From: Opitutia bacterium | GTDB lineage: Bacteria > Verrucomicrobiota > Verrucomicrobiia > Opitutales > JANYEO01 | Length of the DNA stretch: 33,542 nucleotides | Direction of reading: 5' to 3' | Assembly (NCBI GenBank): GCA_025363025.1 | Contig: JANYEO010000035.1 | Span: 1-33,542, forward strand | Shown here: positions 2,639-31,145 of the stretch, piece after piece | Layout: every line of letters begins with the position of its first letter | How positions within the stretch are numbered: the stretch's first letter is position 1 | Notes under the pieces: model-generated | Seen by the model: the letters and a program-made list of their open reading frames with translations, nothing else | What the model was told of the DNA's origin: nothing | Databases searched by the model: none | Program-made: the position numbers and the translations under genes

Positions 2639-3406
2639 TTAGAAGCGCCAGTTGAAGCCCATGTCCACCACGAGGGAGGTTGCTTCAGCATCTAGCTTGT
2701 TACGTACATCACCAAACTTGAACTCTTCGGTGAAGAAGGCACGAAGCCCTACTAACGCCGAGAAGTTATCGGTAATGGCATAGCCCATTTGGCCGAAGAT
2801 CTGGGCTGCGAATTCCGTGTGGCTGTCATGATCAGAGTATGAACCCGTAACCGTTTTTCCGCCCGTTTTTGAAGTTTCTGAATAACATATGTCCGTTTTA
2901 GTACGGGCAAAGTTAATACCGATACCGACACCTAGGTTGAAGAGCACGCGCTTCATCCAGTCATGGTCACAGCAGCCAAAGTCGGCCAAGCAACCATGGT
3001 AGCGGTAGTTTAACATAAGCGGCCATTGCTCCAACTTTGCATTAAGCTGATTGGTCGTCAGAATAGGATTACCCTTCGTATACCCCAATGCCTTGTTCTT
3101 AAAACTACCATTCAAACACTGATCGGCTTCACTACCGAAGTAGTTCAACTCAAGCTCAACGGCATGGTTCTTGTGGAAGAAGTAGCCTACATGCCCCGTT
3201 CCGCCCCAACCATTGAATTTATGGTTCGAAGAATAAACAGGTCCGCCTCCGACGTAGAAGCGGTGCATGGACATATCCCAATTACAGGGCATCATGCAGT
3301 TAGTAGAGCAAGATTGACTGCTAGCAGCCGCTTCAGCAGCTACAACAGCAGAAGCACCTAAACCGAGGAGGCTAGAGGCAACAATTAAGGAACGAAATAA
3401 TTTCAT
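2639..3406 (-). CDS. Cysteine-rich outer-membrane beta-barrel protein (OmpA-like/porin-type)
   Basis: Signal peptide MKLFRSLIVASSLLGLGASAVVAAEA. Alternating amphipathic strands. C-terminal ...MGFNWRF with a terminal aromatic, typical of OMPs. Cys clusters: SCSTNCMMPCNW and GCLADFGCCDHDW. Confidence 0.7.
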   Translation of the reverse strand: MKLFRSLIVASSLLGLGASAVVAAEAAASSQSCSTNCMMPCNWDMSMHRFYVGGGPVYSSNHKFNGWGGTGHVGYFFHKNHAVELELNYFGSEADQCLNGSFKNKALGYTKGNPILTTNQLNAKLEQWPLMLNYRYHGCLADFGCCDHDWMKRVLFNLGVGIGINFARTKTDICYSETSKTGGKTVTGSYSDHDSHTEFAAQIFGQMGYAITDNFSALVGLRAFFTEEFKFGDVRNKLDAEATSLVVDMGFNWRF

Positions 3407-4734: not shown

Positions 4735-4859
4735 GAGACCGATTGCATAATGCCTTTCTTTTGAGTTTTTGGTCGGTTGTCGTTCCTCGAGTACCGCATG
4801 TACACTCGTCGCTTCGCCCTACAAATTCCTCAAAATCAAAACATGCTGCAATCGGTCTC
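4735..4859. repeat. Type-1 long palindromic intergenic repeat (about 125 bp), inverted orientation relative to copies at 24426 and 26662
   Basis: The termini gagaccgattgca...tgcaatcggtctc are self-complementary. The interior matches the reverse complement of 26662-26784 along most of its length (e.g. ctacaaattcctcaaaatcaaa / tttgattttgaggaatttgtag). Confidence 0.8.
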
Positions 4860-5107: not shown

Positions 5108-5189
5108 GCATTTCCATCGAGTGGAAGCGCGCGGAGCGTACGTTTTAGTACGTGAGCACGGTGATACTCGAAGGAATTCAAAAGCATGC
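5108..5189. repeat. Type-2 palindromic intergenic repeat
   Basis: Contains the conserved core gcgcgcggagcgtacgttttagtacgtgagcacggtga, shared with 24321-24410, 27788-27887 and 30766-30867 (reverse), and in diverged form with 23671-23770. It lies just 3' of the tkt stop. Confidence 0.8.
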
Positions 5190-5204
5190 ATTCTCTCATC
5201 GGTC

Positions 5205-7256
5205 TTAAGTGCCACACGCCGCATCGACCAGCGCCACCGTATCATCCAAATCACACGCCCCATTTTCCGTACACACCCCCTGGGCTACTTTAATAAAATG
5301 CTCCGCCGTCATCCCTAGCTCCCGCAGGACGGTGTCACCTGGGGCACTCATGCCAAAGCGGTCAATCCCAATCACACGGCCACTATCCCCCACATAGCGG
5401 TGCCACAAGGCCGTCACCCCCGCCTCCATGGCTATCCGGGCCCGGCAACTAGGCGGCAATACCTCGTCTCGGTAAGCCTGAGGCTGCCGGTCAAATCGCT
5501 CAAAACACGGCAAGGAGACAACCCGCGTCCCCGCTCCTAGTGTCTCAGCCGCGGTAAAGGCATGCTGCAGCTCACTCCCTGTCGCCATCAAAATACGCTC
5601 TAGGGGGGCCGTCTCTTTTTTCGCAATATAGCCGCCTTTTAATACCCCCTGCCGCCGCGTTTCTACCGGTACACTATCTAAAAGAGGCAAATCTTGCCGG
5701 GAAAGACTAAGCGCCGTCGGCCCATCCTTGCGCTGCAAAGCCGCCACATAGGCTCCAGCCGTCTCCTCCGCATCCGCAGGCCGTATCACATCTAAATTCG
5801 GGATAAGGCGCAAAGACGACACCGTCTCCACCGGCTCATGCGTGGGCCCATCTTCCCCAACCGCTACAGAGTCATGTGTCCAAATATAAAATACCGGTAA
5901 CTTCGCCAAAGCCGCCAACCGTACCGACGGCCTCATATAGTCGGAAAAGGTAAGAAAAGTCGCCCCGGAAACGCGAAAGAAGCCGTCATACGCAATCCCG
6001 TTCATCGTAGCCCCCATCGCATGCTCACGGATACCCCAGTGGATGTTCCGCCCTAGGGGGTTCTCCCGGTCAAAGTCTCCTACCCCTGCGATCAAATTCT
6101 TGGTAGAGCCATGCAGGTCCGCACTGCCACTTAAAACGAGCGGCATCGCCTCGGCAATTTTCTGGAGCACTTCCCCCCCGGCAGAGCGGGTCGCCACCTT
6201 CTTGCCCGCTGGGAAGGCCGGTATCTTGGCAGATAAATCCGCCGGCGTCATATGCGCCAAAGCCCCTTCTAGTAATTGCGCTTTCTCCGCATTAGCCGCC
6301 TTCCACGCCGTATAAGTGGCAAGCCACGTATTATAAGCCGCTACCTGCTTGGCCTTATGCTCAGCAAAATAACCCCGCACCTCGGGGGATACATAAAAAA
6401 GCTCCTCCGGTAGCCCCAATGCCTTCCGGGCCGCGGAGACAAACTTTACGCCGCCCTCCCCATGGGCCTTGCACGTCCCCGCTACCTCAGGTATACCCCG
6501 GCCAATCTGCGTACGCGCTACAATAAACTTAGGCCGCCCATTTTTAGCCGCCTTTGCCCGTTCAAACACTGCAAAAAAAGCCTCCATATCATGTCCATCC
6601 ACCGTCTCTACATCAAAGCCATAAGCTTTAAAACGCAGGGCCGTATCCTCGCTTTGGCTTTTACTAGCCGCCGCATCCAGCGTCACATCATTGGAGTCAT
6701 AAATTAAAATAAAATTATCCAGCCCCATATGCCCAGCAAAAGAAGCGGACTCGGCCGCTACCCCCTCTTGCAAACATCCATCTCCGGCAAGGGCTACCAC
6801 ATGGTAATCAAGCAGCGTATGCTCAGCCGTGTTAAAACGCGCCATGGCCATCTTGCCAGACATCGCCATCCCCACTGCATTCCCCACCCCTTGGCCCAAA
6901 GGCCCAGTCGTACACTCTACCCCATCGGTCTCTCCAAATTCCGGATGCCCGGGGGTAATGCTGTGCAATTGGCGGAATTGTTTTAACTGCTCCAGCGGCA
7001 AGTTATACCCTGCCAAATGTAGCCAGCTATAAAGGAACATGCTGCCATGCCCAGCGGAAAGGACAAACCGGTCCCGGTTTATCCAACGGGGCACCTCCGG
7101 GTTAAAGCGCAAAGCCTGGCCAAATAATACCGCCCCCACATCCGCTGCCCCAAGCGGCAAGCCCAAATGGCCCGAAGCCGCTTTTGTTACCGCATCCATC
7201 GCCAAGCCCCGCGCATCACGGGCCGAAAGTTTTAATAGGGGAAGATTAAAGTCCAT
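5205..7256 (-). CDS. tkt: Transketolase
   Basis: 683 aa. Motifs: [13 protein letters not shown], the ThDP-binding GDGCLQEGV(A)[20 protein letters not shown] and DRFGMSAPG. Length and motif order are typical of Tkt. Confidence 0.95.
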
Positions 7257-26661: not shown

Positions 26662-26784
26662 GGCCGGATGCAGAATGCTTTGATTTTGAGGAATTTGTAG
26701 GACGGAGTGATGAGTGTATATACGGTACAAGAGGCGCGACAACCTACCAAAAACTCATAAAGCAAGGCATTCTGCAGCGGTCTC
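26662..26784. repeat. Type-1 palindromic repeat in the divergent sctD / DMT-transporter intergenic region
   Basis: Begins ggccggatgcagaatgctttgattttgaggaatttgtagg and ends caaaaactcataaagcaaggcattctgcagcggtctc. The arms gcagaatgc/gcattctgc are complementary. Confidence 0.8.
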
Positions 26785-27736: not shown

Positions 27737-27787
27737 GACCGACTGGAGAATGCTGATTTGAAGAACCCATCAACCGGCTGCTTTTTT

Positions 27788-27887
27788 AAGGCCTCGATTT
27801 TGAGATGATTTTGTGCGGAGGCGCGCGGAGCGTACCTAGAAGTACGTGAGCACGGTGATGTGCAAAAGCGCTCAAAAGCGAGGCCTT
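27788..27887. repeat. Type-2 palindromic repeat between convergent genes; overlaps the flagellin stop codon
   Basis: The arms aaggcctcgattttgag...ctcaaaagcgaggcctt are near-perfect. Core: gcgcgcggagcgtacctagaagtacgtgagcacggtga. Confidence 0.85.
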
Positions 27888-28689
27888 AAACGAGCAACCG
27901 CAGGACGCTTTGAGAAGAATGATTAGCCTGAGACAACATCACCGCACCGGACTGCACTAAAATATTATAGCGGGCAAATTTAGTAGACTCGGCCGCAATA
28001 TCGGTATCTAAAATGCGACTATTAGCGGATTCCAAATTTGTACGATTAGTTAGCAATACTTCGCTCGCAAAATCTAAGCGATTGGTCTCCGCCCCGTTTT
28101 TGGCACGCTTGGTTGCGATGCTTTGAAGCGCGGCTGTGTAAGTCGGAATACTGGTAGCAGCTAAGCTTGCGGCGGTGGTAATCGGGGTAACCGCGGCTGC
28201 TAAATCGGCAAGGGTGATCTGCAAATTTTGAGTACCCTCTGCTGAGGTAACAACTGTTTTAGATGAAGCACCTGCGGCAAATAAACTGACCCCGTTAAAA
28301 GACTGAGCGAGTACGCTTATCAGTTGATCTTTTAGCGTTAAAAACTCTGTATTATAATTAGCAACATCTGCCGGGCTTTTCGTAGGGTCCCCACTTAAAG
28401 CTGAAAGCTCCGACATACGGGAAACAATAGCTGACGCAGACCCCATCGCCCCATCTTGCGTTTGAAGCAAAGAGACCGCATTGGCCACGTTGGTGATCAA
28501 TGCATCTGTACGACGAAGGGCTGCTTGCATTTTCATAGAAACGGCGAGGCCTCCTGCATCATCAGAAGGGCCTAATAATTTAAAGCCACTGGATAACCGG
28601 CCCAAACTCTTTTGAAATAAGGATTGATTGACATTTAAGTAATTCGACGCAGCTGTAGCGGCTGCATTTGAATTAATAACGAGTGACAT
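27886..28689 (-). CDS. fliC: Flagellin (short, D0/D1-only type), copy 1
   Basis: From the ATG at 28689: MSLVINSNAAATAASNYLN...LGRLSSGFKLLGPSDDAGGLAVS...LLQTQDGAM. C-terminus: NRLDFASEVLLTNRTNLESANSRILDTDIAAESTKFARYNILVQSGAVMLSQANHSSQSVLRLLV. Confidence 0.9.
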   Translation of the reverse strand: MSLVINSNAAATAASNYLNVNQSLFQKSLGRLSSGFKLLGPSDDAGGLAVSMKMQAALRRTDALITNVANAVSLLQTQDGAMGSASAIVSRMSELSALSGDPTKSPADVANYNTEFLTLKDQLISVLAQSFNGVSLFAAGASSKTVVTSAEGTQNLQITLADLAAAVTPITTAASLAATSIPTYTAALQSIATKRAKNGAETNRLDFASEVLLTNRTNLESANSRILDTDIAAESTKFARYNILVQSGAVMLSQANHSSQSVLRLLV

Positions 28690-30750: not shown

Positions 30751-30765
30751 GGGAGGCCATTGCCC

Positions 30766-30867
30766 TAATGCATGATTCTGAATGCTTTTGAGCATCATCC
30801 GTACTCACGCACTAAAACTTACGCTCCGTGCGTTTCCTCTCAAAATCTCTTCAAAATCAAAGCATTA
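30766..30867. repeat. Type-2 palindromic repeat (reverse orientation), 3' of the HDOD gene
   Basis: The reverse complement reads aatgctttgattttgaagagattttgagaggaaacgcacggagcgtaagttttagtgcgtgagtacggatgatgctcaaaagcattc. Confidence 0.75.
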
Positions 30868-31082
30868 GGACAACGGCCCCCGAGGTGTTTAAAATTTAAA
30901 GAAGAAGAGAAATGATCACGAGATCAATTGGAGATTCTACAGCGGCCTGTGAGTAATCATCTAAAAAGCAAAGCATTACTTATCCTGAAAAAATTAAATA
31001 CTCCATTAAGGAGACCGCTGCATAATAACGATTTCAAACAAAGCACACCCTATTTGATACTTTAATATTCGGGATTATAGAG

Positions 31083-31145
31083 AGGCCGCATGTGGAATGC
31101 CTTAATTTTGAAGAACTTGCCAGGCGGAGCGATAATACCGCAAGT
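31083..31145. repeat. Type-1 repeat, left arm only (truncated copy)
   Basis: aggccgcatgtggaatgccttaattttgaagaacttgccaggcggagcgata aligns with the left half of 26662-26784. The right arm is missing. Confidence 0.55.

Follow-up and report, generated by a model that had tools for sequence, protein, structure and literature searches.

Stop-codon-associated hairpin repeats in an Opitutia bacterium resemble MITE-like mobile elements and carry an apical core found in at least six phyla

In this study, we analyzed a stretch of DNA of 33,542 nucleotides (the window) from an Opitutia bacterium of the phylum Verrucomicrobiota. The window represents one entire contig (C212) of a 1.73-Mb assembly with 273 contigs, a GC content of 47%, and a completeness of 85%. 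Searches against Pfam confirmed its genes tkt, those for a TPR/HrpB1-like chaperone, the needle protein SctF, SctD, and two flagellins, and a gene for an HDOD protein. A sequence-only reading of the window had described five copies of a palindromic repeat, referred to as type-2, and five type-2 copies are indeed present at or near the proposed positions (Table 1). A covariance model of the core recovered exactly these five copies with 33–59 bits (E-values 2e-8 to 4e-16), and nothing else in the window scored above 10 bits. The conserved core, its loops gtttta, gtttga, and ctagaa, the double change to catac/gtatg, and the outer arms aaggcctcgattttgag / ctcaaaagcgaggcctt were all found as described, and the repeats also explain the spurious look-alike open reading frames in this region. 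The copies are imperfect hairpins, as proposed, but with a length of about 100–128 nt instead of 80–100 nt, and the copy placed at 5108 is 5′-truncated.

Table 1. Repeat elements in the window, with positions, strands, and scores
Feature	Position	Strand	Fold, score, or sequence
Type-2 copy (the copy under study)	27789..27886	+	−64.9 kcal/mol, z −8.4; covariance model 54.1 bits
Cross-phylum core within this copy	27823..27857	+	GCGCGGAGCGTAC-CTAGAA-GTACGTGAGCACGG
Type-2 copy, diverged	23672..23769	+	z −6.3; covariance model 45.8 bits
Type-2 copy with its own arms (CGGGTGTTCAGTTTGAG / CTCAAAATGAATGTTCGG)	24315..24414	+	covariance model 58.9 bits
Type-2 copy, reverse	30751..30874	−	−60.4 vs −38.8 kcal/mol (two strands); covariance model 33.5 bits
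Type-2 copy, 5′-truncated	5111..5204	+	z −3.0; covariance model 55.8 bits
Type-1 sister element, outer arms in common with type-2	24426..24550	+	profile search
Further type-1 copy	~4735..4859	−	
Further type-1 copy	26662..26784	+	
Type-1 copy, left arm only	~31083..31145		

The copy under study runs from AGGCCTCG to CGAGGCCT and has TA on both sides (27787–88 and 27887–88) in a TTAA context; a looser palindrome around it extends from 27775 to 27900. Its last base plus the TA is overlapped by the stop codon of a flagellin gene (TAA, minus strand, 27886–27888). From the tip outward, its core consists of a 5-bp apical stem, a G·U pair, and an asymmetric internal loop (GGAG vs TGA), followed below the loop by the pairs C-G and R-Y, an A/C·A mismatch, and the pairs G-C and S-S. 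The diverged copy, in which the apical stem reads CATAC/GTATG as a compensated change, is likewise flanked by TA (23670–71 and 23770–71) in a TTAA context. It is located in the center of a further 12-bp palindrome, GGAGATCCTTGT (23658–69) / ACAACGATCTCC (23772–83), which extends as far as the TPR chaperone gene's stop codon (23783–85). The copy starting at 24315, whose two strands fold at −35.6 vs −24.0 kcal/mol, lies between the start of the TPR chaperone gene and the type-1 copy at 24426, which itself abuts the sctF stop codon. The reverse copy begins directly after the TAG stop codon of the HDOD gene (30748–50) in a CTAG context, and its apical stem has decayed to CGTAA/GTGCG by uncompensated changes. 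The truncated copy is devoid of the left outer arm, and CGGTC, its right end, directly adjoins the stop codon of tkt (TAA, minus strand, 5205–07). Immediate proximity to a stop codon, claimed for all five copies, was therefore confirmed for four of them, but not for the copy placed at 24321 (here 24315), which is set apart from the sctF stop codon by the intervening type-1 copy.

All five window copies fold better than dinucleotide shuffles of their sequences (z = −3.0 to −8.5; 0–1 of 200 shuffles folding equally well). For the pairing analysis, 18 type-2 copies from the genome and 27 consensus pairs were used, with 97.1% of all stem cells being paired. Changes on both sides occurred in 16 of the 27 pairs, compared to 5.4 ± 1.2 in shuffles, none of which reached 16 in 500 trials, and to 2–5 in slid controls, so that the proposal of compensatory stem changes stands. 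One-sided stem changes were mostly of the G·U type on one strand (17 cells vs 5 of the A·C type). To define the ends of the element, gapless palindrome extension and the outer pairs of minimum free energy structures were tried and dropped, both being too noisy. The suggested search of Rfam (release 15) yielded no match for the window at gathering thresholds and none for the element at E-values up to 10; with 14 loci from other phyla, the sole match was a T-box elsewhere in one locus. A likeness of the 3′ arm to words of the 23S sarcin-ricin loop and of SRP RNA, noted by eye, found no support in Rfam and is regarded as coincidence.

By profile searches of the whole assembly, we detected a superfamily of 243 loci covering 1.5% of the genome, which comprises 189 type-1, 27 type-2, and 27 type-3 elements; 28 of the 243 loci lie near contig ends. 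The outer arms are common to the three types (..GAGACCG-N-TGCAGAATGCTTTGATTTTGAG .. CTCAAAAGCATGCATTCTGCA-N-CGGTCTC..), and the cores differ by type. The elements are about 100–125 bp in size, non-coding, and present in many copies, and no reading frame is kept due to the variable loop length. In about 9 of 25 type-2 copies, the outer arms are unique within the genome. Their derivation from the flank of another copy was considered and rejected, since the unique arms have no match elsewhere in the genome. Type-1 represents the abundant sister family. In many of its copies, a conserved module of about 70 nt is added on the left (..GCAGAAAATTTCAATTTTTGAACTTTCGAGATTAT-NN-A/GAGACCG; slashes in sequences mark junctions), and several copies are bordered on both sides by the direct repeat ATTAT(N). 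Because of this module and these flanking repeats, the real type-1 unit may be longer than its hairpin.

The gene context was analyzed with a crude ORF caller, which predicted 1558 genes and 87% coding sequence. As proposed, type-2 copies are placed 3′ of genes, with none of 19 in a divergent spacer. Of all elements, 33% are located in convergent spacers, which make up 14% of all spacers. Between tandem genes, the element lies at a median of 5–12 nt past the stop codon of the first gene and about 90 nt ahead of the start of the second. No type of stop codon is enriched at the elements, which occur in either orientation relative to the gene upstream.

For the detection of the core in other organisms, we used the pattern GGAGCGTAC-N4-8-GTACGTGAGYAC, for which about one match is expected by chance in 596 Gb. 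It matches at least 120 loci in genomes of at least six phyla, nearly letter for letter over the tip of about 40 nt. Among the matches listed are Alphaproteobacteria (Mesorhizobium, Agrobacterium, Bosea, Brucella/Ochrobactrum, and Sphingosinicella), Nitrospira and other Nitrospirales, Bacillota (Paenibacillus, Listeria, Pelotomaculum, and others), Bacteroidota (Alistipes and Mucinivorans), and Myxococcota (Polyangiales and Kofleriaceae). The core always forms the tip of a hairpin of 100–150 nt, the arms of which are specific to the respective lineage. Elsewhere, 12–241 copies per genome were counted; Brucella cytisi has only 3 exact core matches. The core was found neither in 40 genomes of the same order nor in 400 genomes of the same phylum from 185 genera. 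This occurrence in many phyla, together with the absence from the sample of its own phylum, argues for an acquisition of the core by horizontal transfer, as judged from sequence distribution. Outside the search pattern, the next positions are a C-G pair (98%), an R-Y pair (G-C 147, A-T 14), an A or C facing an invariant A, a G-C pair (98%), and an S-S pair (G-C 106, C-G 43). The core loop is free in length (4–8 nt) and sequence, and the apical stem CGTAC/GTACG is invariant across phyla, without covariation. The notable feature of these elements is their core tip, which is asymmetric, hardly varies between phyla, and has no counterpart in Rfam. A literature search on the letters of the core returned nothing relevant. 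No neighboring gene recurs across phyla, and the clusters found reflect alphaproteobacterial gene order only.

The core was also present in 22 contigs of IMG/VR, and a related query returned 33 alphaproteobacterial plasmid records. In 14 of the 22 IMG/VR matches, one and the same high-GC alphaproteobacterial locus was recognized (within L121–L142), at which the element abuts the end of a gene on the opposite strand (..IKLLKF..; ..GAA(C/T)TTCAGCAGCTTGATC). These 14 matches probably reflect one conserved neighborhood and not carriage by phages. Throughout, the two strands of the element are not equivalent: the strand bearing the pattern folds better than its complement by a mean of 6.2 kcal/mol in this genome (18 of 21 copies) and by a mean of 9.7 kcal/mol in other genomes (125 of 142 copies).

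Several lines of evidence on mobility were obtained. The element as a whole is a hairpin with inverted ends, either AGGCCTCG.../...CGAGGCCT or GAGACCG.../...CGGTCTC, and the two TA-flanked window copies have the ends AGGCC.../...GGCCT. For a comparison of filled and empty sites, one orthologous convergent spacer was analyzed in 30 Mesorhizobium genomes (L183–L212), and both empty sites with spacers of about 20–40 nt and filled sites with the structure stop-TA/AGGTG...core...CACCT/TA were present. A TA on both sides, which may be a target-site duplication but is also its own reverse complement, marks these filled sites as well as two window copies; most copies in this genome have no clear target duplication. 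The Mesorhizobium spacer also contains derivatives that have lost the tip and consist of arms only, joined at a GGCCTG direct repeat, and nested inserts of other hairpins beside the core (+44 nt and +105 nt). As a further observation, hairpins of at least four unrelated families have inserted into this hot-spot spacer, all of them directly after one of the two stop codons. Regarding strain polymorphism in the bacterium studied here, contigs from other samples are 100% identical and other relatives are too distant.

Nesting occurs in this genome, too. Nine type-1 copies have the same insert of about 115 nt in the apical loop, and this insert is itself a hairpin (..ATTCCCCATGGTAAGGCGATGCCAGTCGACTTACCATGGGGGGAGG..), which indicates nested insertion into hairpin tips. 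Copies with the 115-nt insert were seen at C69:~3070–3250, C72:1166, C77, C83, C120:4544, C222:26590, and C247. Moreover, chimeras were detected, in which type-3 arms enclose either a type-2 or a type-1 core, or in which a type-1 left half and a type-2/3 right half are joined at the apical GTAC. Since the copy at 23672 is located centrally within the palindrome GGAGATCCTTGT/ACAACGATCTCC, copy-specific outer arms are probably palindromes into whose center the element inserted. TA flanks, filled and empty sites, and insertion into palindrome centers together point to the behavior of a TA-targeting MITE.

Small palindromic repeats such as REP, ERIC, and Correia elements have been known for decades. 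For ERIC, which is the closest known system to the type-2 element, we know of neither a cognate transposase nor a reason for its shape. ERIC (also IRU or RU-1) is a MITE of about 127 bp with inverted ends and TA flanks, it has orientation-dependent effects on mRNA via RNase E (PMC3184786, PMC10969869), and it has been reported only from Enterobacteriaceae and Vibrionaceae (PMC10969869). Both are imperfect palindromes of about 100–130 bp, found in transcribed spacers, often 3′ of genes, and in both orientations, and the TA at both ends of ERIC (PMC3184786 and an E. coli copy) has its counterpart in 2 of the 5 window copies. The E. coli copy reads TA/TACTC..CCCCA-GGAG-CTTAC-ATAA-GTAAG-TGA-C-TGGGG..GAGTA/TA. 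Its tip grammar GGAG-CTTAC-ATAA-GTAAG-TGA-C is nearly the same as GGAG-CGTAC-loop-GTACG-TGA-G in the core described here, with a single, compensated stem difference (G-C to T-A). However, the arms are unrelated, and the core studied here occurs in at least six other phyla. A search of this genome with ERIC by nhmmer found nothing, and the core model assigned only 13.6 bits to the ERIC tip (E 0.03 in 34 kb), which is not significant. The element behaves like ERIC and may be a distant cousin of it, but is not filed as ERIC because the sequence match is not significant.

Correia/NEMIS elements of Neisseria and RUP of pneumococcus are TA-duplicating MITEs linked to IS630/Tc1-type or IS5-type transposases. 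They resemble the type-2 element in being small, with inverted ends, a TA target, 3′-of-gene placement, and hairpins in the mRNA (PMC10969869). In contrast to our element, in which the interior tip is conserved and the ends are lineage-specific, their ends are conserved and the interior is free; also, no matching IS was found here. The ~100-bp palindromic intergenic repeats Bru-RS1 and Bru-RS2 of Brucella and RIME/Sm-repeats of rhizobia come from the Alphaproteobacteria, a class in which the core occurs as well. IS711, whose target is YTAR, uses Bru-RS elements as insertion hot spots (PMC2266754, PMC3163539). Compared by description only, Bru-RS and RIME may be old names for alphaproteobacterial elements with this core.

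In the search for a mobilizing enzyme, IS630-family (DDE_3) transposase fragments were found at two contig ends (C270:~6100–6437 and C90:1–170), and an IS630-family DDE transposase is the candidate enzyme class. As the actual partner, IS630 was rejected: both fragments end with ..TTCAACTAGATTTACTATA/TA, which is unlike the hairpin ends, and DDE_3 is absent from the core-carrying genomes of Paenibacillus (G042, 119 copies) and Listeria (G047, 35 copies). At C194:8362, a type-2 copy is interrupted by an end similar to ..TTCAACTAGATTTACTATA/TA. The search for an autonomous element having the ends of the hairpin found none in the assembly, whose incompleteness (85% complete) and fragmentation keep this absence from being proof. 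TnpB was not found in this genome. Reverse transcriptases were not found in the carrier genomes G043 and G044; in this genome, five RVT_1 matches above the cut-off were observed in unusually long frames of 759–1125 aa (C264:1716–2474, C132, C245, C268, and C240), plus a sixth, weaker match below the family cut-off.

Considering all results, we favor, with moderate confidence, the explanation that the five repeats are copies of a non-autonomous, MITE-like mobile hairpin of about 100–125 bp which carries no gene. In favor of it are the copy number, the 3′ placement, the TA flanks, the Mesorhizobium sites, nesting, chimeras, the unique outer arms, the horizontal origin, the IS630 fragments, the covarying stems, and the ERIC precedent. 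Against it are the missing autonomous element, the differing IS630 ends, the absence of DDE_3 from G042 and G047, the mostly absent target duplication, the absent preference for a stop codon type, and the complete identity of same-strain contigs. A known MITE with a cognate IS had been named as the outcome that would speak against the sequence-only reading; MITE-like behavior was found, a cognate IS was not.

Such a mobile hairpin would be built in layers, with the apical core of about 40 nt common to many phyla, family-specific inner arms, and outer arms that would be either shared, as a consequence of recent bursts of copying, or unique, then probably representing the target palindrome. A transposase acting in trans would insert the element at TA, often in a TTAA, CTAA, or CTAG context, with a putative preference for spots beside a stop codon or in the center of another palindrome. 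Copies sparing promoters would survive and thereby accumulate in 3′ spacers, and recombination of modules at the apical GTAC...GTAC could give rise to the chimeras of type-1, type-2, and type-3. The core would be held constant because some single-stranded form of one particular strand has to fold and be recognized. Transcription of the upstream gene is expected to include the hairpin, which, by analogy with ERIC and Correia elements, may alter the fate of the mRNA 3′ end.

Cut-and-paste transposition by a DDE enzyme fails to explain the strand difference of 6–10 kcal/mol and the conservation of the asymmetric central loop instead of the ends. A tentative, though possible, extension is that the ~40-nt tip (..S-G-[A/C]-R-C-GGAG-CGTAC-loop-GTACG-TGA-G-Y-A-C-S..) represents a functional module which has not been described before and moves between lineages. 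As a folded single strand, it would be recognized by a widely distributed enzyme or protein, and it would be borne by otherwise unrelated hairpins in many phyla, ERIC being its cousin in enterobacteria. In this case, there would be a whole class of tip-conserved mobile hairpins sharing one mechanism, which would be neither classical MITEs nor REP/RAYT systems.

A role of the repeats in termination or mRNA 3′-end protection had also been suggested. In its broadest form, this would make them host-selected, cis-acting RNA elements of the 3′ UTR, serving as exonuclease barriers or as sites for RNase E, RNase III, or a protein, and thereby setting mRNA decay or decoupling neighboring genes, with mobility as the mere route of arrival. 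The placement directly after stop codons and in convergent spacers, the very stable hairpins, and the compensatory changes preserving the stems fit this idea, as do reports that ERIC and Correia elements affect mRNA (PMC10969869, PMC3184786); in addition, the GGAG/UGA loop could form tandem G·A pairs, a common protein-binding motif. However, relative to the gene upstream, the better-folding strand is mostly the antisense one (10 of 13 tandem cases in this genome and 51 of 75 elsewhere), the latter figure being inflated by 14 viral-contig cases that resemble one common locus. This speaks against a structure selected in the sense of the mRNA. None of 17 terminator-like sites in the scan is located at a copy, their total is not above that of shuffles, the copies have no T-tail, and there is no Rfam family; truncated and decayed copies are tolerated (5111–5204 and 30751–30874). 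The type-2 element is not a classical terminator, and we consider selection as a cis-acting RNA element rather unlikely.

Nor is the type-2 element, for which a REP/BIME-like role had been suggested, a REP/BIME element. Like REP, BIME, and REPIN sequences, it is an extragenic palindrome 3′ of genes with compensated arms and possibly acts as a folded single strand, but it has no REP unit of 20–40 bp. A REP/REPIN-type mechanism, by which an HUH tyrosine enzyme (Y1, RAYT-like) would move the folded single strand at replication, with the core as its binding and cleavage hairpin, would accommodate the strand-specific fold, the conserved asymmetric internal loop, conservation at the tip and not at the ends, and the long hairpin with covarying arms. 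The search for a RAYT/IS200-like transposase, proposed on the basis of the REP likeness, gave no PF01797 match in this genome (85% complete), and no Y1/RAYT gene was found in the closed genomes of Paenibacillus (G042) and Acidocella (G044, 14 copies). Further arguments against such a mechanism are the missing GTAG or CGTC tag and the TA flanks in Mesorhizobium and two window copies. The orientation of the copies does not fit, either. An apparent bias between replication arms of a Nitrospirales chromosome was dismissed, as its run of 82 '+' copies was a listing artefact, and with a fixed-length pattern covering one loop class, 74 '+' and 42 '−' copies were interspersed in the Nitrospirales genome G041 without an arm switch. 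Transposition of the IS200 family is coupled to the direction of replication. In contrast to the core hairpins of G041, about 70 IS200-like Y1 transposase copies on contig C15 of the Nitrospirales genome G045 switch strand in blocks ('+' below 1.55 Mb, '−' from 1.76 to 4.03 Mb, and '+' above 4.25 Mb). A REP/REPIN-type origin is thus unlikely in our view.

REP/BIME elements bind gyrase and IHF. With this precedent, the repeats could be double-stranded or cruciform DNA sites for a chromosome protein (gyrase, an IHF- or HU-like protein, or a partition or methylation factor), spread because they organize the chromosome, and the invariant, non-covarying CGTAC/GTACG stem would then be read by sequence rather than by shape. 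The strand asymmetry with its G·T wobble bias, unexpected for a double-stranded site, the patchy distribution at the level of single genomes, and the loop length varying from 4 to 8 nt make this very improbable. Hardly credible is an independently transcribed family of trans-acting small RNAs, which the conserved, covarying structure and many copies might recall, considering that promoter-like sites are not enriched at the copies (10 vs 14.8 expected), that copies of either orientation lie against stop codons or overlap them, that the arms vary between copies, leaving no common seed, and that there is no Rfam match.

As a MITE-like mobile hairpin with its conserved tip, the element provides a handle on what moves ERIC-type elements and why they are shaped as they are. 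Since the core is shared across many hosts, its reader can be sought by pull-down or by cross-genome comparison. For genome analysis, it is of practical relevance that the repeats fragment assemblies and create spurious ORFs. In the bacterium studied here, they are located on the stop codons of virulence-related operons, i.e., those of type III secretion needle genes and flagellins, where, by analogy with known systems, they could alter the fate of the mRNA.
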